Assembly: GCA_026387835.1 (NCBI GenBank)
Contig: JAPLKZ010000013.1
Span: 89,254-153,253, forward strand
DNA from: Candidatus Saganbacteria bacterium
Lineage (GTDB): Bacteria > Margulisbacteria > WOR-1 > JAKLHX01
DNA length: 64,000 bases
Direction of reading: 5' to 3'
Shown here: in pieces, positions 11,011-19,836 of the stretch
Layout: each line of letters begins with the position of its first letter
How positions within the stretch are numbered: the first letter of the stretch is position 1
Notes under the pieces: model-generated
Databases searched by the model: none
What the model was told of the DNA's origin: nothing
The model's input: the letters and a program-made list of their open reading frames with translations, nothing else
Made by a program: the position numbers and the translations under genes

Positions 11011-11030
11011 GATGAAATTATTGTTAAAAT

Positions 11031-11117
11031 CGGAAGGAGCAGGATTTGAACCTGCGGTGCGCTTGCACGCACAGTAGTTTTCAAGACTACCGCCATAAAC
11101 CACTCGGCCATCCTTCC
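11031..11117 (-). tRNA. tRNA-Ser (anticodon TGA), type II with long variable arm
   Basis: GGAAGGATGGCCGAGTGG...CTTGAAA anticodon loop...TTCAAATCC T-loop; 7-bp acceptor stem GGAAGGA/TCCTTCC; no encoded CCA. Confidence 0.85.
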
Positions 11118-11262
11118 ATGTCCCGCTCGCTTGCCCCGAGCCTGTCGAGGGGGCCACCTCTCCGTAAAATATTGTATCACGGCTGTAGGTGCGTAGGATA
11201 TCAGCACGACCTCCGGCAAATGACCAAATAATCCCGTTCCCGCGACATTTTTTGGAAAAATC

Positions 11263-11441: not shown

Positions 11442-12515
11442 ATGATAGCAGTAAAAGGTTCCACAACAGTCCCGAAATTAGGATTACTGACCGTTCCCCT
11501 GCATTTTAAAGAATGCAAGCCAAGGCTCACCGGTATTCAAGATGCGGCAAGATTTGCAAAGAGCGCGGGATACGATACCCTTCAGGTAGCGATGTTCCCG
11601 ACAGTAAGCAAAGACGGTACCATAAGGGATTTTTCCGCTATGACAGCTGATCCCAAGTTCCTTTTGGACAAAGCGAATGCTGCCGAGATCACGGAAGGAT
11701 TAGCTGCAATAAAGGCTGAAACAGGAGTAGGCATCGATTCTGTATGCTTCTGCGCCAACCCGCTTGGCAACCTTGAAGACAGAGAACATTTAAAGGCGGT
11801 TATCGATGCAGGTGCAGTTCTGGGAGCAAGGTCCGTGGTTACTTTCATAGGTAATCCGTTCCCATTAGCCGGCAAACCTCTTTCCGGTGCAGATCTGAGA
11901 AAGTTCTTTGTTGATAAGCTGGCGACCGACTATGCGCCGCTGGTCAATCAGACAACGCAACTCGGTCTCGAGTTCGACGTTGAAGACTGCCCGATGTACT
12001 TCACGATGTCACCCAACGGATCGACACCGATCACGAACATGTTCTTCACTCCCGCACTGAAAAGATTAGTTCTAAGTGTATTGCCGGACATAAAGATCCA
12101 CTTTGATGGGTCGCACACAAGGAATTACCGCGGTGCGAGGGAAGAGAACCCGGCTGCTTCAAGGACAATAGCCGAGATCATTGCAGAATTCGGCGATGCT
12201 TTCGGGCAATCGATCCACCTGAAGGACGGAGTTGATGATCCTAAGGGAATGGCTGATCATCTGGGAGCCGGCGACATGTTCGAGCCGAACACTCACACAC
12301 AGGGATTATGGATCGCAAGAGCACCGGGCAGGGGAGCAATCGACTGGCTGCACTTTGAAATGGCAATGAAAGCATTTGCCCCACGGTCAACGGCAAGGAT
12401 AGTAGAGCTGGAAGATACAAGCGCGTCTTCAAGGGCGGACAACGAACAGTTGTTCATCGGTGTCGCACAGTTCTACAGAAATATATTTGAACAGGTTTAC
12501 GGGTCCAAAGGCTGA
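11442..12515 (+). CDS. putative sugar phosphate isomerase/epimerase-like protein (TIM-barrel type), uncertain
   Basis: 357 aa ORF with RBS aaggag; assignment rests on weak similarity and on the typical pairing with a downstream Gfo/Idh/MocA oxidoreductase. Confidence 0.4.
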   Translation: MIAVKGSTTVPKLGLLTVPLHFKECKPRLTGIQDAARFAKSAGYDTLQVAMFPTVSKDGTIRDFSAMTADPKFLLDKANAAEITEGLAAIKAETGVGIDSVCFCANPLGNLEDREHLKAVIDAGAVLGARSVVTFIGNPFPLAGKPLSGADLRKFFVDKLATDYAPLVNQTTQLGLEFDVEDCPMYFTMSPNGSTPITNMFFTPALKRLVLSVLPDIKIHFDGSHTRNYRGAREENPAASRTIAEIIAEFGDAFGQSIHLKDGVDDPKGMADHLGAGDMFEPNTHTQGLWIARAPGRGAIDWLHFEMAMKAFAPRSTARIVELEDTSASSRADNEQLFIGVAQFYRNIFEQVYGSKG

Positions 12516-12583: not shown

Positions 12584-13774
12584 ATGCCAATAAGTACGAC
12601 CGAAGTAGCAAACAGCAATTACAGAGTTAGAGTCGGGATAGTCGGCGGAGGAAGGGGTTTTATCGGTGGAGCTCATAAGGTTGCGATAGGCATGGGCAAT
12701 AGAGAACTTGTCGCAGGAGCATTGCACCAGAACCCCACAATAGCCGAATCAGAAGCTAAGGTTTGGGGTCTTAAGCGCGGATATCCTAATTATGAACAGA
12801 TGATCAGGGAAGAAGCTTTGCTTCCCGCGGAGCAAAAGATCCAATATCTTACGATAGTTACCCCTAACGTCACACACTTTGGAATAGCAAAAATGGCCCT
12901 TGAGAACGGGATCCCGGTGTTCTGCGAGAAGCCGCTGACGTTCGACCTCGCGCAGGCAATCGCACTTCAAAGGCTCGCGAAAGAAAAGAACCTTCCTTTT
13001 GGCGTGGCATACACGTACACGGGTTTCTGGGCGACAATGAAGGCAAGGGACCTGGTTATGAGCGGAGCTCTCGGTAACATAACAAGTGCCGACAGCTGGT
13101 ACAATCAGGGCTGGCTGGACAAGGCGCTTGAATCAGCAGAGATGGCCAATGTCGGCGGTCATCAGCAGGCTGAATGGCGCACTGACCCGGCAAGAGCAGG
13201 CATTTCATGCTGCGGCGGTGATATCGGCACCCATGCGTTTCAGAATATCCGTTTCATAACAGGGCTTGAAGCTCTGAGCGTATACGGATTCCTGAGAAAA
13301 GTCGTTCCGGGCCGAAAGCTGGACGATGAATTCCTGGCAGTAGCAAATCTCAGTAACGGCGTACAGGCGACAGTCAGAGCATCGCAGATAAGGAGCGGAA
13401 AACAGAACGATGTGGGTTTTATGATCAGCGGCACAAAAGGCACGCTCACTTGGGACATGCAGAGTTTCACGGAGCTCAGCCTTGAGGGCCAGGGGCCTAA
13501 ACAGATATTCAGACAGGGGGATGAAGTGTCTGCAGCGCAGGCGCCTTTTGTCGGTCTTCCCGGTGCACACTGGCATGCACACTATGATGCGTTCGCGGCT
13601 CTCCATACAACAATGGAAGCACGCGTAAGGGCTCTCAATGGAGAGGCAGCGTCGATCTATCCGCACCCAACGGTCGCGGACGGAGTGGCAGGGATGGCGT
13701 TCATCAAGGCAACGGTCGAAAGCAACGAGAGAGGTCATATAGTTGCACCTGTTGAACAGAACCCGACGAATTGA
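12584..13774 (+). CDS. Gfo/Idh/MocA family oxidoreductase
   Basis: 396 aa; N-terminal Rossmann motif VGIVGGGRGFIGGAHK, CEKPL motif. Confidence 0.8.
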   Translation: MPISTTEVANSNYRVRVGIVGGGRGFIGGAHKVAIGMGNRELVAGALHQNPTIAESEAKVWGLKRGYPNYEQMIREEALLPAEQKIQYLTIVTPNVTHFGIAKMALENGIPVFCEKPLTFDLAQAIALQRLAKEKNLPFGVAYTYTGFWATMKARDLVMSGALGNITSADSWYNQGWLDKALESAEMANVGGHQQAEWRTDPARAGISCCGGDIGTHAFQNIRFITGLEALSVYGFLRKVVPGRKLDDEFLAVANLSNGVQATVRASQIRSGKQNDVGFMISGTKGTLTWDMQSFTELSLEGQGPKQIFRQGDEVSAAQAPFVGLPGAHWHAHYDAFAALHTTMEARVRALNGEAASIYPHPTVADGVAGMAFIKATVESNERGHIVAPVEQNPTN

Positions 13775-13827: not shown

Positions 13828-13913
13828 ATAGGTCCGCCTTGCTTGATTTGACCTGCCTTTTGCAATACAATAGAAATAAAGAAGCATTAATTATTCCGGA
13901 GGGGGTGAGTTTG

Positions 13914-14132
13914 ATGAAGAAAATGATAGCGATGATCGCCGTTTTGATGTTCGTTGCGGTTGTTTATACCGGGTGCGCACCGTCAACAGAAAAAAAGACC
14001 GAGACAACAACAACGACAACAATGTCAACAACAGAAACTACAGTGGTAACAAAGGAAGCAGCAGCCAAACCGGCAGCAAAAACAGGAAAACATTTAAGGC
14101 ACAAGAAACACAGCAAACACAGAATGAAATAA
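13914..14132 (+). CDS. small Thr-rich lipoprotein (72 aa)
   Basis: Signal peptide MKKMIAMIAVLMFVAVVYTGC with lipobox-like YTGC; RBS ggaggggg upstream; basic C-terminus. Confidence 0.5.
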   Translation: MKKMIAMIAVLMFVAVVYTGCAPSTEKKTETTTTTTMSTTETTVVTKEAAAKPAAKTGKHLRHKKHSKHRMK

Positions 14133-14285: not shown

Positions 14286-15881
14286 ATGAACATATTACCC
14301 TTTTTAAAGAAACCCTCGACGGGTTCGGCATATGAAGACGAACGAAATATCTATGTCGGCAACCTGAGCCTGGATGACCGGCCGGCAAGCGATCTGAAAG
14401 ACCTGAGCGGCTTTTTCAAGAGAATACTTCACAAGAGGATAGACAGGTTCTGTCCCGACAAAAGAAAGGTCATCACCAGATTTCTCGAAATAAGTGACGC
14501 GGCCCATCTGGGATCCATCATTAAAAGGGCTCTCGATCTTGATAAGGGCCGGATATCGGCAAAACTCCGCGAGGTCATGGCCGAATTTTCCAAAAGGCAT
14601 AGATCCATCGAGAATATATTTATGCGGAATTACCTGAAAGTCGCGGCTGCCGCCGAGTCCATATCACCCTCCCCGTCAAAAGAAAAAAAGCTTCTCATAG
14701 GATCCCTTTTCACTATGGAATATTCTTATGAATCAACAAGCCTGTTCAATCCTTCTGTTGTGCTGTATCCAAAGCAGAACGGCCTTAAAAAGGGGCAGGT
14801 CAGGGTCGTTTTCTGTTTCAGGGCCACAGGGGAGGGGCATATCTCATCGATCATCTTCAGGAGCGCGGTGATAGATAAGAACAATGACATCTATCTTGAG
14901 CCGATAAGCCGCTTTGCCTCGACCCCCGCAGTTAACATGGACCCTACATACGAGAAGAAGATCTTCGCTGAAAAATTAAAAGACATAGGTTCGCTGGACG
15001 AAACAGCGGCGGCGATACTCGGCCGTCTCCCGGATAATTTTTCGTATAACGAACTTATGAACGAGATAAAAGACTTTCTCCCTTCAGGATCAAATGACGT
15101 CGGCATGGCATCTAAGCTTTCTCCGGTCAAGATGAAGTGGCTTGCCGACTGTAATTATGAGGTCTCATTTCCGCCTGATCAGCTGATATCCGAGAGAGTT
15201 TTATTCCCTGTCTCACCTACCGAAAGCAACGGAATGGAGGATGCCAGGTTCGTGCGTTTTACGCGGGACAGCGGAGATTTTATTTATTACGCGACGTATA
15301 CGGCATATAACGGCATCTCTATTCTGCCGCAGATACTTGAGACAAAAGATTTTCATCATTTCAAGATGTCAACACTGAACGGGCCTTTTGCAAAAGACAA
15401 AGGCATGGCGCTTTTTCCCAGAAAAATAAACGGCAGATACGCGATGATATCAAGGTCCGACGGTGAAAATCTTTTTCTGATGTATTCCGATAATCTGAAT
15501 TTCTGGTACGAAGCAGTAAAGATGCAGGAACCGAGCCGGACATGGGAGATGGTCAAGATAGGCAACTGCGGCTCTCCGATAGAGACAAAGGAAGGCTGGC
15601 TGCTTTTGACGCATGGCATCGGTCCGATGAGAAAATACTGCATAGGGATAGAACTTCTTGACCTGAACGACCCGTCAAAGGTGATCGCGAAGATGGAAGA
15701 GCCCCTTTTAAGCCCCACGGAAGAAGAGCGGGACGGTTACGTGCCGAATGTCGTATATAGCTGCGGTTCTATCCTTATCCGCGATAAGCTGATCATCCCG
15801 TATGCCGAATCCGATTCGGTCTCAAGCATAGCGGTGATAAGGCTTAATGAACTTCTTGATAAACTCTTGAAAAAGCGCTGA
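14286..15881 (+). CDS. GH130-like glycosidase/phosphorylase domain protein with about 280 aa N-terminal extension
   Basis: C-terminal half resembles GH130 beta-propeller (GMEDARFVRF..., YYATYTAYNG, repeated blade-like segments); N-terminal region unrecognised. Confidence 0.55.
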   Translation: MNILPFLKKPSTGSAYEDERNIYVGNLSLDDRPASDLKDLSGFFKRILHKRIDRFCPDKRKVITRFLEISDAAHLGSIIKRALDLDKGRISAKLREVMAEFSKRHRSIENIFMRNYLKVAAAAESISPSPSKEKKLLIGSLFTMEYSYESTSLFNPSVVLYPKQNGLKKGQVRVVFCFRATGEGHISSIIFRSAVIDKNNDIYLEPISRFASTPAVNMDPTYEKKIFAEKLKDIGSLDETAAAILGRLPDNFSYNELMNEIKDFLPSGSNDVGMASKLSPVKMKWLADCNYEVSFPPDQLISERVLFPVSPTESNGMEDARFVRFTRDSGDFIYYATYTAYNGISILPQILETKDFHHFKMSTLNGPFAKDKGMALFPRKINGRYAMISRSDGENLFLMYSDNLNFWYEAVKMQEPSRTWEMVKIGNCGSPIETKEGWLLLTHGIGPMRKYCIGIELLDLNDPSKVIAKMEEPLLSPTEEERDGYVPNVVYSCGSILIRDKLIIPYAESDSVSSIAVIRLNELLDKLLKKR

Positions 15882-15959
15882 CTGCTATTAACTTCCACGT
15901 TTCGCTATTGAACACCTTACTGGTGTTGAAAAAATCAACAGTATTGATGGGATAAGTTG

Positions 15960-16048
15960 TCACGAATTGTCTCACGAATGAGTTTATCGCGAATAACGCC
16001 AATAAGAATTTTGCTAATTGTCGCGAATTATCACTAATCACACGAATC
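15960..16048 (+). repeat. left terminal inverted repeat and array of five CACGAAT/CGCGAAT heptamers
   Basis: TCACGAATTGTCTCACGAAT at 15960-15979 matches the reverse complement of 16523-16546 apart from a 4-nt indel; heptamers start at 15961, 15974, 15988, 16022, 16042. Confidence 0.65.
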
Positions 16049-16093
16049 GGGCGGGGAAATTGCTGGTAGGTCCATCATAGGAGGAAATTAATT

Positions 16094-16474
16094 ATGGGCG
16101 CAAAACTTATCCATGCCGAATTGAGCTATAAGTTGGTCGGGGTTCTTTACAAAGTATATAACGAGCTTGGCGGCGGGTATCAGGAAAAAATATATCAATC
16201 TGCGGTCAGAAAAGAGTTGAAAAAAAGCGGGATAAATTTTACCGAACAATTGGGAATAGATCTGTTATATGACGACAAAAAAATAGGCAGATATTTTCTT
16301 GATTTTGTCATTGAGAACAAAATCGTGCTGGAGCTCAAGGTTGTCCCAAGATTTTCACCCCGCGACATAATGCAGGTGCTCGGTTATCTTAAACAGACCG
16401 GACTGGAGCTCGGCATTCTTGCCAGCATGAACAGAAATGGCATTATTATGAAACGTATACTGAAAGGAAATTAG
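16094..16474 (+). CDS. GxxExxY family protein (PD-(D/E)XK-like small protein)
   Basis: 126 aa; family-typical N-terminus ...HAELSYKLVGVLYKVYNELGGGYQEKIYQ...; RBS aggagg. Confidence 0.75.
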   Translation: MGAKLIHAELSYKLVGVLYKVYNELGGGYQEKIYQSAVRKELKKSGINFTEQLGIDLLYDDKKIGRYFLDFVIENKIVLELKVVPRFSPRDIMQVLGYLKQTGLELGILASMNRNGIIMKRILKGN

Positions 16475-16478
16475 CGTT

Positions 16479-16556
16479 ATTCGTGTAAATTCGAGTTAAT
16501 AAGTGAGATCTCTATTCGTGTGATTCGTGATACAGACAATTCGTGAAAGATTCGTG
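16479..16556 (+). repeat. right terminal inverted repeat and array of ATTCGTG heptamers (reverse complement of left array)
   Basis: ATTCGTG at 16479, 16514, 16523, 16539, 16550 plus a degenerate copy at 16489. Confidence 0.65.
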
Positions 16557-16627
16557 ATAAATAGGCCTACACACAATTCTCATAATCTGCACTTAACTCA
16601 TCCTCCATTGCGAAAGTGAGAAGAACT

Positions 16628-18871
16628 TTACTCCAAGTTCTCCAGCTCGTATTCTTCCATCATCGCAAGTAGTGCAAGAAGGAAAGATACCGTGCTCTCG
16701 GCTCCCTGGTTCATGCTGGCGCCGCCCTGCATAAGGCCGTCGGAGCATCCTTTTGAGGCCATATCATACATGGGAACTCCCAGATCGTTCTCTCCAAGGA
16801 ACCAGTCGAACGCCTGTTTCATCTTCTTCAGGTATCCGGTGTCATGCGTCACCCTGTAGGCCGATTGCAGCGCCATTACCATCGAAGCGGCATCTATGGA
16901 CTGCTGGTCAAACTGGGCTTTTTTGCCGCCTTTGGTGAACCAGCCGTTACTTCCCACGACTGAAAGGATGCCGTCCTTAAAAACGATCTTTTCCAAAAAG
17001 GCCAGAGATTCTTTCGCGGTCTTCAGCAGTTTTTCGTCTTTAAGGATACTATAAGCATTAAACAGCGACATGGGCATGATCGCGTTATCATAGCAAAGGA
17101 TATCCTCGAACCATTTCCACTGATCGCCCGCATGCTTCTGATATGCACCCTCCAGGTCATTTATTATTTTTTTCAACAGCTCATATGCCTGTTCGTCCGA
17201 ATTAAATATCCTCAGGTAGCACACTATCCCCAGGGCAGCAAAGGCTTTGCCTCTAAGATTAAGCTTAGGGATAATATTGAACGATTTCTTGATCATTTCC
17301 GCGGCAAAAGACCTGTAGGCCTCGTTCTTTGTCCTCCAGATAAGAAACCCAAGCGACCAGATCGCCCTGCCGTTACTGTCGTCCGAGCCCTTTTCCTCCA
17401 GATGGTTCCTTTTATAATCTATAAAATTGGCAAAGCCGCCGTCTTCTTTCTGCATGTACTTGACAAAACTGCAATAGATGGAAAGCAGGTCCTCGGCTTC
17501 TTTGTCCTCCAGAAGAGATGCCGCCCACGCGGCAAGCATTATCGCTCTTGCGTTATCGTCAAGGCAGTAGCCGGTGCTCCTGTCAGGCACGAGATATTTT
17601 GCGTGCTGGATCATCCCCGTATCATCGGTCAGCCTTTTTATGTGGGTCAGGTCAAAGGCCGGCAATCCCATCACCGACGTTGACTTGGGGTAATGCGAAA
17701 AGACCGGTTTCTTTTCGGAGGAGACTTTTGAAAGGAGCTCCGCGTATTTTGCTGATATCTTCTTCCATGTCATCTGCCTTCCGGACTCATAAGCTTTTTT
17801 TTGCAGGGCCTTGAGTTTTTTTTCGTTCATTAAGAGGTCCCTGAGTATCTCCGAGAGTTTTTCTGAGTCGTTAAAATCAAACAAATATCCCCTGCCGCCT
17901 GACAGCATCTCTTCGGCGTACCAGTAGGGGGTGGAGATTATCGCATTGCCGGCGCCGATCGCGTACGAAAGAGTGCCGCTGACGACCTGAGCTTTGTTCA
18001 TATAAGGAGTGATATAGATGTCAGATGCCGAAAGCCAAGCGTAAAGCTCTTCTATTGTCACGAACCTGTCATCGAAAATGACATAAGGCCTGAGGTTCAG
18101 CTTGCCGACAAGCTTGATAAGGCTTTCCCTGTATCTCTCTCCCTGTTCTTTTTGGACATGAGGATGGGTCTTTCCCAGTATCACGTAAGTGAGGTCGGGA
18201 AAATCTTTTATCACGGAAGGCAGTGACTTTATGACCGTCTCTATCCCCTTGTTGGGGGCTAAAAGGCCGAACGTCAGTATCATCTTTTTGCCTTCAAGCT
18301 TGAAGCGTTTTTTATAATGTGAGGAGTCAAGAGAAGTGAAATCCGGCGTCCCGTGAAGTATCAGCTCTATTTTTTCGCCCGGCGCGTTATAGACATCTTT
18401 CAGCAGTTCAATGCTTTTTCTGCTCATGACGACGATATTGTTGGAGCGCTGGATGATCTCCGACATTATCCTCTTCTGGTTGGCGTTGGGATTTTGAAGC
18501 ACGGTATGAAGTGTCGTGATAAGCGGCACGTTAAGCCTTGACAGAAGAGAAAGTATATATATTCCATCCCATCCGCCGAATATGCCGAATTCATGCTGCA
18601 GGCAGACAACCTGGGCGTTGCTGGTGTTTATTATGTTGGCGGCATCAAGATAATCCTTCTGCCTGTTCTGGTTGATAGAAAAGATCACTTCTTTGGGATA
18701 ATCGTAGATCCGGCCCTCGTCATTTAAAGCGATGGCAAAGATGCTTGACTTATCGGACAGCCTTTCGGTGACGGCGTTGCACAGGTCGCTGGTGAAGGTG
18801 GCGATGCCGCATATGCGCGGAAGATAGTTCCCGATGAACGCGACATTAAGTTTTTTCTTGCAGTGGAACAT
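16628..18871 (-). CDS. GT4-family glycosyltransferase fused to a C-terminal domain of unknown function (about 350 aa)
   Basis: N-terminal half has group-1 glycosyltransferase features; ATG at 18871 chosen, an in-frame TTG at 18901 would add 10 aa. Confidence 0.7.
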   Translation of the reverse strand: MFHCKKKLNVAFIGNYLPRICGIATFTSDLCNAVTERLSDKSSIFAIALNDEGRIYDYPKEVIFSINQNRQKDYLDAANIINTSNAQVVCLQHEFGIFGGWDGIYILSLLSRLNVPLITTLHTVLQNPNANQKRIMSEIIQRSNNIVVMSRKSIELLKDVYNAPGEKIELILHGTPDFTSLDSSHYKKRFKLEGKKMILTFGLLAPNKGIETVIKSLPSVIKDFPDLTYVILGKTHPHVQKEQGERYRESLIKLVGKLNLRPYVIFDDRFVTIEELYAWLSASDIYITPYMNKAQVVSGTLSYAIGAGNAIISTPYWYAEEMLSGGRGYLFDFNDSEKLSEILRDLLMNEKKLKALQKKAYESGRQMTWKKISAKYAELLSKVSSEKKPVFSHYPKSTSVMGLPAFDLTHIKRLTDDTGMIQHAKYLVPDRSTGYCLDDNARAIMLAAWAASLLEDKEAEDLLSIYCSFVKYMQKEDGGFANFIDYKRNHLEEKGSDDSNGRAIWSLGFLIWRTKNEAYRSFAAEMIKKSFNIIPKLNLRGKAFAALGIVCYLRIFNSDEQAYELLKKIINDLEGAYQKHAGDQWKWFEDILCYDNAIMPMSLFNAYSILKDEKLLKTAKESLAFLEKIVFKDGILSVVGSNGWFTKGGKKAQFDQQSIDAASMVMALQSAYRVTHDTGYLKKMKQAFDWFLGENDLGVPMYDMASKGCSDGLMQGGASMNQGAESTVSFLLALLAMMEEYELENLE

Positions 18872-18973
18872 GATCTTGGCCTTTTGTATCCTTGAATCCA
18901 ATTATATACTAATAATGGGAGGATAAACTCAAAACTCCGGTTTTGGCTATGTTATAATTATTTTTGTATACCT

Positions 18974-19046
18974 GAGCCACTAGCTCATCTGGTAGAGCAC
19001 TTGCCTTTTAAGCAAGTGGTGCCGCGTTCGAGTCGCGGGTGGCTCA
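18974..19046 (+). tRNA. tRNA-Lys (anticodon TTT)
   Basis: Acceptor GAGCCAC/GTGGCTC, anticodon loop CTTTTAA, T-loop TTCGAGT. Confidence 0.85.
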
Positions 19047-19052
19047 AATTAT

Positions 19053-19128
19053 GGGCCCGTGGTGTAGCCTGGTCTAACACGCATGCCTGTCACGCATGAG
19101 ATCGAGGGTTCAAATCCCTTCGGGCCCG
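19053..19128 (+). tRNA. tRNA-Asp (anticodon GTC)
   Basis: Acceptor GGGCCCG/CGGGCCC, anticodon loop CTGTCAC, T-loop TTCAAAT. Confidence 0.85.
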
Positions 19129-19134
19129 TTTGTT

Positions 19135-19207
19135 GGCGGGTTAGCTCAGTTGGTAGAGCAGTAGCCTGAAAAGCTATGTGTCCTCAGTTCAATTCTGAGA
19201 CCCGCCA
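19135..19207 (+). tRNA. tRNA-Phe (anticodon GAA)
   Basis: Acceptor GGCGGGT/ACCCGCC, anticodon loop CTGAAAA, T-loop TTCAATT. Confidence 0.85.
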
Positions 19208-19259
19208 AATTATCTTTTTTGCTGTGGGCTTGCGCCGAGCGAGTGAAGCGAGTCGAGGC

Positions 19260-19332
19260 GCCGACGTAGCTCAGCTGGTAGAGCAGCTGTTTCGTAAACA
19301 GCAGGTCGTCAGTTCAATCCTGACCGTCGGCT
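19260..19332 (+). tRNA. tRNA-Thr (anticodon CGT)
   Basis: Acceptor GCCGACG/CGTCGGC, anticodon loop TTCGTAA, T-loop TTCAATC. Confidence 0.85.
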
Positions 19333-19763: not shown

Positions 19764-19836
19764 GCTGGCGTAGCTCAGCTGGTAGAGCAGCGGTTTTGTA
19801 AACCGCAGGTCGTCAGTTCAATCCTGACCGCCAGCT
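19764..19836 (+). tRNA. tRNA-Thr (anticodon TGT)
   Basis: Acceptor GCTGGCG/CGCCAGC, anticodon loop TTTGTAA, T-loop TTCAATC. Confidence 0.85.

Follow-up and report, generated by a model that had tools for sequence, protein, structure and literature searches.

Between positions 14286 and 18871, the 64,000-nucleotide (64-kb) stretch of Candidatus Saganbacteria DNA analyzed here (contig JAPLKZ010000013.1, hereafter the window) carries a convergent pair of genes for carbohydrate-active proteins. The plus-strand gene (14286-15881, ATG start, 531 amino acids) encodes a glycoside hydrolase family 130 (GH130) protein of the beta-mannoside-phosphorylase type with family-specific additions, referred to below as GH130-long. 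The minus-strand gene (16628-18871) encodes a 747-residue protein, counted from the ATG at 18871, in which a glycosyltransferase family 4 (GT4) module is fused to a large C-terminal domain; we call it the GT4 fusion. An alternative TTG start at 18901 would add 10 residues, and the starts of the homologs correspond to 18871. The two stop codons are separated by 746 bp. Both open reading frames (ORFs) are real genes rather than chance ORFs, since a protein identical to the 531-residue product is annotated in a Candidatus Saganbacteria metagenome-assembled genome and each product has thousands of full-length homologs, with E-values down to 0. The original prediction, made from the nucleotide sequence without database searches, had described a convergent pair with non-standard architectures at 14286-18871, and the two ORFs indeed occupy these positions on opposite strands.

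The Pfam profiles leave approximately 300 residues of GH130-long and 360 residues of the GT4 fusion blank. In GH130-long, PF04041 is confined to residues 302-526 (E=3e-32, 112.2 bits against a cut-off of 26, profile positions 84-317). In the GT4 fusion, PF00534 (59.3 against 26.4 bits), PF13692 (45.3 against 27) and PF13439 (28.8 against 28.5) match within residues ~73-362, and only marginal matches to six-hairpin families (C5-epim_C, GH88) are found at residues ~580-700. The ~350 unassigned residues predicted after the GT4 domain are thereby borne out as a Pfam-blank C-terminus of ~360 residues, and domain searches place neither blank region in a well-known family of unrelated function.

These architectures are the norm for two large families and not a quirk of this genome, which is where the original description of them as non-standard needs amendment. 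The best 120 homologs of GH130-long are nearly all full length (about 507-533 residues, 54-81% identity), as are the best 120 homologs of the GT4 fusion (about 741-763 residues, 57-87% identity); the sources include Margulisbacteria/Saganbacteria, Aminicenantes and Syntrophales. In alignments of ~70 sequences each, the mean column identity is 75% for GH130-long and 79% for the GT4 fusion, and many invariant residues lie within the Pfam-blank regions of both proteins. A search with residues 55-300 of GH130-long against 1.84 billion cluster representatives (clusters at 50% identity) retrieved 1167 representatives at E<=1e-3 and 722 at E<=1e-10, always near the N-terminus of ~500-residue proteins or in fragments. 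When one genome per GTDB species was scanned, relatives of GH130-long turned up in at least 597 species, from which 80 loci were kept for the analysis of gene linkage. Both full-length architectures are conserved in more than 12 phyla and in two archaea, one Methanomassiliicoccales and one Promethearchaeota. The bacterial lineages among the 80 loci are Acidobacteriota, Aminicenantes, Desulfobacterota (including a cable bacterium), Planctomycetota, Chloroflexota, Verrucomicrobiota, Bacteroidota, Ignavibacteria, Gammaproteobacteria, Hydrogenedentes, Fibrobacterota, Spirochaetota, Myxococcota and Melainabacteria, and cultured carriers include Verrucomicrobium sp. BvORR034 (L055) and Fibrella rubiginis HMF5335 (L083).

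An AlphaFold model of GH130-long, with a predicted template modeling score of 0.68, contains helices at residues 72-141, beta strands at 143-223, further helices at 224-288 and a propeller at 292-519, and the protein has GH130's five-bladed beta-propeller fold. The ~280-residue N-terminal extension of the original prediction does correspond to ~300 residues without a Pfam match, but it is not a single extension. Residues 1-54 are variable, and tblastn matches in other phyla begin at residues ~45-58. They are followed by a helical domain of ~85 residues that is not in Pfam (residues 55-141, 14448..14708), in which R104-H105 is invariant in 73 of 73 sequences, and by the probable blade 1 of the propeller (residues 142-223, 14709..14954) with invariant N155, R173, R179, G-E-G-H185 and R192. 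A helical insertion of ~68 residues (224-291, 14955..15158) then stands between blade 1 and the catalytic Glu-Asp, and blades 2-5 (15159..15878) carry the catalytic and phosphate-binding set, namely E318-D319 (15237-15242), K372, R390, H443 and D510. In Uhgb_MS and Lin0857 a lid loop lies between R47 and E136 and limits the product length in GH130_4 (PMC12814180); the 224-291 insertion is probably its topological equivalent. Hydrophobic or signal-like segments were found in neither GH130-long nor the GT4 fusion, which suggests that both proteins are cytoplasmic.

Residue equivalences were established by alignment to Uhgb_MS, Teth514_1788 and Teth514_1789, with functional roles taken from published work (PMC12814180, PMC7660257). 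The beta-1,2 pair of Uhgb_MS, E136 and K184, corresponds to E318 and K372; D319 aligns with the proton donor D137, and R390 with R202, the phosphate-binding Arg that marks phosphorylases. H443 and D510 align with the conserved His, which binds inorganic phosphate (Pi), and the conserved Asp of PMC7660257. Across all phyla, none of these residues varies in any of the 73 GH130-long sequences, and the same is true of R321, D392, R449 and N488. GH130-long therefore possesses the proton-donor Asp and the phosphate-binding Arg and His that distinguish GH130 phosphorylases from the GH130_3 hydrolases. According to an empirical rule, an E/K pair at the +1 subsite marks the beta-1,2 GH130 phosphorylases (PMC7660257), and by these published criteria GH130-long is classified from its sequence as a phosphorylase-type, beta-1,2-type member. 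Judged by its profile scores, it is not an equivalog of the characterized enzymes, as it falls short of both NCBIfam models for beta-1,2-mannobiose phosphorylase (NF052550, 148.5 bits against 450; NF050092, 142.1 against 550). Its closest solved relatives are the Teth514 enzymes. In comparison with Teth514_1788/1789, Lin0857 and Uhgb_MS (GH130_4, GH130_6), it adds the helical N-terminal domain and the insertion that parts blade 1 from blades 2-5, and it differs from the known beta-1,2 phosphorylases in its extra invariant basic residues and in scoring below every NCBIfam equivalog cut-off. GH130 phosphorylases have been described as almost always single-module proteins acting on imported di- or trisaccharides (PMC7660257).

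The N-terminal part of the GT4 fusion (residues 1-387, 17711..18871, minus strand) is a GT-B module with a non-canonical donor site. Its best solved relative is PimA (E=7.5e-10), a GDP-Man enzyme, with MshA and sucrose-phosphate synthase close behind. In canonical GT4 enzymes the two glutamates of the EX7E motif bind the donor sugar (first Glu) and the ribose hydroxyls (second Glu), and an Arg/Lys pair coordinates the pyrophosphate (PMC8760489). The module matches the GT4 family profiles of Pfam but has neither the EX7E motif nor the complete Arg/Lys pair. Q295-x7-Y303 (17963-17989) stands in place of EX7E, with Y303 aligned to the Glu of the PimA 'LVEAM' segment. The clamp Arg is missing from the corresponding segment (TFGLLxPNKG), where its position is taken by G202, L203 or L204, and K208 is retained. 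In 57 sequences from many phyla, Q295 is conserved in 57, Y303 in 56 and K208 in 57, so that Q295 and Y303 match catalytic residues in their degree of conservation. Because both EX7E glutamates and the pyrophosphate Arg are lost, the donor of this module may not be an ordinary nucleotide sugar.

The C-terminal region (residues 388-747, 16631..17710, minus strand) has the (alpha/alpha)6 barrel fold of the six-hairpin glycosidase/epimerase superfamily. D438-D439-N440 (17552-17560), E589 and E725 are invariant in the same 57 sequences. Structurally, the barrel is matched best by YPO2471, epimerases and endo-mannanases, and not by GH63 or GH100. In profile searches the sole significant match is YPO2471 (E=2.9e-8), with common motifs DD..ARA and N-x-GAEST. 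This Yersinia pestis protein (PDB 7TEM), an uncharacterized 'putative exported protein', is a stand-alone domain 18% identical to the barrel. The profile of the D-glucuronyl C5-epimerase C-terminal domain (PF06662) also matches above its cut-off (27.2 against 23.3 bits) and does so in 14 of 14 members tested, but over just 50 of 188 profile positions.

AGE/CE epimerases carry their catalytic His pair in the second half of the barrel, on the later inner helices. The invariant His residues of the GT4 fusion are H410 and H423, both before helix 1, and none is invariant after residue 423. A role of the barrel as an AGE- or cellobiose 2-epimerase-like partner of GH130 was rejected, as it lacks conserved His where these enzymes need them. 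The mannan-catabolic systems that combine cellobiose 2-epimerase/AGE isomerases with GH130 mannosylglucose phosphorylase differ as well, in that the GH130 partner here is of the beta-1,2 type and not the beta-1,4 Man-Glc type. In the mycobacterial endo-mannosidase MmpH, Asp47 and Asp50 near the N-terminus are candidate acids and Glu262 the base. The paired Asp residues at the start of the first barrel helix may resemble both Asp47/Asp50 of MmpH and the adjacent Asp-Asp pair of the GH76 alpha-1,6-mannanases, an analogy that we regard as a lead.

The linkage of the two genes was assessed in both directions. In the forward direction, tblastn and ORF clustering around GH130-long in the 80 species-level loci showed that the GT4 fusion adjoins it in 64; of the 16 other loci, 10 are ended by a contig edge and six have at least 2.5 kb of sequence on both sides. 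In approximately 46 loci the two genes share a strand in tandem order, the GT4 fusion being immediately upstream of GH130-long, and stop and start codons often touch or overlap; 15 loci are convergent, like the window. For the reverse test, metagenomes were searched with the barrel domain from the C-terminus, which gave 80 loci, and in all of these the barrel is fused to a GT4 module. Of the 55 loci whose downstream sequence beyond the GT4 fusion extends to 3.5 kb or more, 51 include a GH130 gene. The neighbor rate is thus ~91-93% of informative loci in both directions, and the genes flanking the pair are wholly different between lineages. Clustering of all ORFs from 84 loci revealed only two further recurring families, a canonical ~340-residue GT4 (27 loci) and a 313-residue short GH130 (~20 loci). 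Given this strong linkage, the unrelated flanks and the scarcity of other recurring families, the pair is a self-contained module, which sometimes comprises four genes. The co-occurrence data support a functional link between the two genes.

The extended version of the module consists of the GT4 fusion, the canonical ~340-residue GT4, the 313-residue short GH130 and GH130-long. It was observed in L009 (6007-9933) and L011 (6228-12320), with similar arrangements in L018, L026, L028, L034, L042, L050, L051, L056-L059, L065, L067, L080 and L081. The additional GT4 retains GR...KG and both glutamates. Most of the short GH130 proteins carry an E/R pair, which has been published as the beta-1,3 signature in GH130. 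The 2.2-2.3 kb tblastn spans at Desulfobacterales-type loci were considered as an insertion or intein in GH130-long, and proved to be the short GH130 and GH130-long side by side. In L009 and several other extended clusters, the additional GT4 is fused to the C-terminal cupin of a GMP/PMI-type mannose-6-phosphate isomerase (in L009, PF01050 with E=5e-35 and TIGR01479 with E=2.5e-34). Two rare variants of GH130-long itself carry extra domains. P0273 (751 residues; L089 2717-4972, L090 1541-3796) has an N-terminal HAD-IIB/phosphomannomutase-like domain (PF03332, TIGR01484), and P0259 (622 residues) has a C-terminal response-regulator receiver domain. The mannose-6-phosphate isomerase cupin and the phosphomannomutase-like HAD fusions tie the system to mannose phosphates.

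We propose, with about an even chance of being right, that the pair forms a cytoplasmic two-enzyme module for a mannose-containing glycoside or oligosaccharide, in which the two proteins act on different bonds of the same molecule. As regards substrates and direction of flux, GH130-long would most likely catalyze the reversible conversion of a beta-1,2-mannoside and Pi to alpha-mannose 1-phosphate (Man1P) and an acceptor, possibly alongside weak transfer from GDP-mannose, a side activity that other beta-1,2 GH130 enzymes show. D319 would serve as the proton donor, R390 and H443 would hold the phosphate, and E318/K372 would set the beta-1,2 geometry. The helical N-terminal domain, with R104/H105, and the insertion that follows blade 1 probably form a cover on the plus subsites and choose the acceptor. 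The role of the GT-B module would be to assemble or bind an alpha-linked portion of the molecule, which the barrel with its DDN motif would trim, hydrolyze or transglycosylate.

Several observations weigh against this proposal. Neither family has a characterized member. The GH130 part is just 28-31% identical to the characterized enzymes and scores far under the equivalog cut-offs, so the E/K rule may not transfer to it. The AlphaFold model of GH130-long is of moderate quality (predicted local distance difference test score, pLDDT, of 73), and the catalytic loop 302-318 is poorly modeled. The GT4 module, being without three of the four canonical donor-binding residues, may be no transferase at all. 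GH130-long can evidently work without the GT4 fusion, because the six amply flanked loci, as well as the P0273 fusion, have none nearby. Finally, the window pair is convergent and split by an insertion, which precludes co-transcription here.

Among the alternatives, we consider unlikely a salvage route of the kind proposed for Thermoanaerobacter, whereby the GH130 enzyme phosphorolyzes imported beta-1,2-mannooligosaccharides to Man1P, and conversion of the latter yields GDP-mannose, which the GT4 would use for alpha-mannosylation of envelope glycans. The Thermoanaerobacter cluster does combine GH130 beta-1,2-mannoside phosphorylases with a Man1P guanylyltransferase and a GT4 (PMC4264767), and its GH130 enzymes are the closest solved relatives mentioned above. 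However, the 84 loci show no recurrent transporter, secreted glycosidase or guanylyltransferase gene next to the pair. The known beta-1,2 phosphorylases have transporter and GH5 neighbors, whereas GH130-long has no GH5 context and is locked to the GT4/six-hairpin fusion. In addition, the GT4 module has lost the EX7E motif and pyrophosphate Arg expected of a GDP-mannose user, and the salvage route offers no role for the fused six-hairpin domain or for the accessory domains of GH130-long.

The original prediction viewed the genes as a synthesis-and-breakdown pair for one glycoside. The functional link that it implied is supported. In favor of the pair itself are the strong linkage of the genes, the carbohydrate-active nature of both proteins and the existence of phosphorylase/synthase pairs for glycogen, sucrose and trehalose. 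That the GT4 makes and GH130-long breaks one and the same bond is nevertheless improbable, since GT4 enzymes are retaining and form alpha products from alpha-linked donors (PMC9883506), whereas GH130 enzymes are inverting and work on beta-mannosidic bonds, in cleavage or in formation (PMC4264767). GH130-long has the complete residue set of a beta-mannoside phosphorylase, and as a hydrolase-like partner of the GT4 the six-hairpin domain fused to it is the more plausible candidate.

A similarly small probability is assigned to an osmolyte cycle, in which a small alpha-glycoside (akin to mannosyl- or glucosyl-glycerate, sucrose or mannosylfructose) comes from the GT4 and is hydrolyzed by the six-hairpin domain, and GH130-long adds or removes a beta-mannosyl cap. 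The HAD-IIB domain fused to GH130-long in P0273 is of the kind used as phospho-glycoside phosphatases, CAZy lists GH130-GT81 fusions (PMC7660257), and the invariant basic residues R104, H105, R173 and R192 could bind an anionic acceptor. On the other hand, no phosphatase or glycerate-related gene is conserved nearby in the 84 loci, and neither GH63 nor GH100 is among the best structural matches of the barrel, which are YPO2471, epimerases and endo-mannanases. The support for such a cycle is indirect throughout.

We likewise see little likelihood in a glycan-building machine independent of nucleotide sugars, where GH130-long would interconvert alpha-Man1P and beta-1,2-mannosides, the GT-B module, having shed its nucleotide-binding residues, would use a sugar 1-phosphate or the growing glycan, and transglycosylation or primer-making would fall to the fused six-hairpin domain. 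Such a machine would parallel the cyclic beta-1,2-glucan synthase or the mannogen cycling of Leishmania, and, if real, would point to an unrecognized cytoplasmic mannan-type reserve or protectant glycan in many bacteria and some archaea. Both parallels are analogies only: the synthase (GT84, an (alpha/alpha)6 cyclase and a GH94 phosphorylase) and the Leishmania mannogen MTPs (GT108) belong to different families throughout, and nothing here points to a polymer or a cyclic product. Coincidental adjacency, or extra regions created by mis-called starts or merged genes, could be read from the convergent, interrupted arrangement in the window, but is refuted for practical purposes by the full-length conservation of thousands of proteins (55-87% identity), the invariant residues within the 'extra' regions and the linkage in both directions with unrelated flanks.

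For the two-enzyme mannoside module proposed here, the fusion of a GT4 with a barrel has a parallel, by analogy only, in the mycobacterial methylmannose polysaccharide system, in which ManT (GT4) and MmpH (an (alpha/alpha)6 endo-mannosidase) make and re-prime the polymer. In that system, the two are separate proteins and the cluster includes two methyltransferases, whereas in the present case a GT4 without EX7E and the barrel form one protein, the 84 loci show no recurrent methyltransferase family next to the pair, and GH130-long is an obligatory partner.

The interval between the two genes in the window contains a GxxExxY/PDDEXK_3 gene (16094-16474, plus strand, 126 amino acids), identified by TIGR04256 (104.1 bits against a cut-off of 35) and PF13366 (104.1 bits against 22, E=7.6e-30). 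The original prediction had correctly placed this cassette exactly between the two genes; it is not part of the system. In the closest relatives of the window pair (81% and 66% identity), the stop codons are 0-2 bp apart with no GxxExxY gene between them; it is missing from the abutting pairs of L004-L008, L087 and L088. The GxxExxY gene is, therefore, a recent, lineage-specific insertion outside the module. It is bracketed by inverted clusters of the heptamer ATTCGTG at 15961-16047 (three minus-strand copies plus near-copies, upstream) and 16479-16556 (five plus-strand copies, downstream). The window contains 11 exact copies in total, these eight included, against an expectation of 8.6 for its whole length. 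Together with the absence of the gene from the closest relatives, the heptamer clusters look like the footprint of a small inserted cassette.

A plus-strand gene at 13911-14132, directly upstream of GH130-long, encodes a small protein of ~73 residues without a significant Pfam family; it has a hydrophobic, lipoprotein-like N-terminus ending in Cys, a Thr-rich middle and a very basic tail, and was not found beside the pair in relatives. Further upstream on the plus strand are a 357-residue protein without a Pfam match (11442-12515) and a Gfo/Idh/MocA oxidoreductase (12584-13774), which adjoin GH130-long only in contigs from the same organism. The 357-residue protein, the oxidoreductase and the Thr-rich protein were rejected as members of the system, as they are not beside the pair in its closest relatives. 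A tRNA-Ser(TGA) gene lies at 11030-11118 (minus strand). On the other side, a tRNA cluster at 18973-19332 and 19764-19836 (Lys-TTT, Asp-GTC, Phe-GAA, Thr-CGT, then Thr-TGT), on the strand opposite to the GT4 fusion gene, begins ~100 bp past the 5' end of that gene.

A search of the literature library found no paper describing the gene pair, the N-terminal domain of GH130-long or YPO2471, and a search on the Thermotoga beta-1,2-mannosyltransferase TM0359/MDIP synthase returned nothing useful. Both proteins belong to known superfamilies with known chemistry, and nothing established is overturned by their description. The GH130-long clade comprises ~700-1,170 clusters at 50% identity that share a split propeller and an extra conserved helical domain. 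GT4 enzymes are functionally defined by a donor site with EX7E and the Arg/Lys pair, and the module of the GT4 fusion departs from both. The breadth of the pair (hundreds of species in more than 12 phyla plus archaea), its strict linkage and the lost GT4 donor site make it a good target for the biochemistry of carbohydrate-active enzymes. Its characterization would define a new cytoplasmic mannoside pathway, provide a function for the YPO2471-like barrel family and reveal the role of a GT4 fold without EX7E. It may also supply phosphorylase or transferase tools for the synthesis of beta-mannosides, which is hard in glycochemistry. Even if the pair merely salvages mannose, the annotation of thousands of 'glycosyltransferase' and 'GH130 protein' entries would be corrected.

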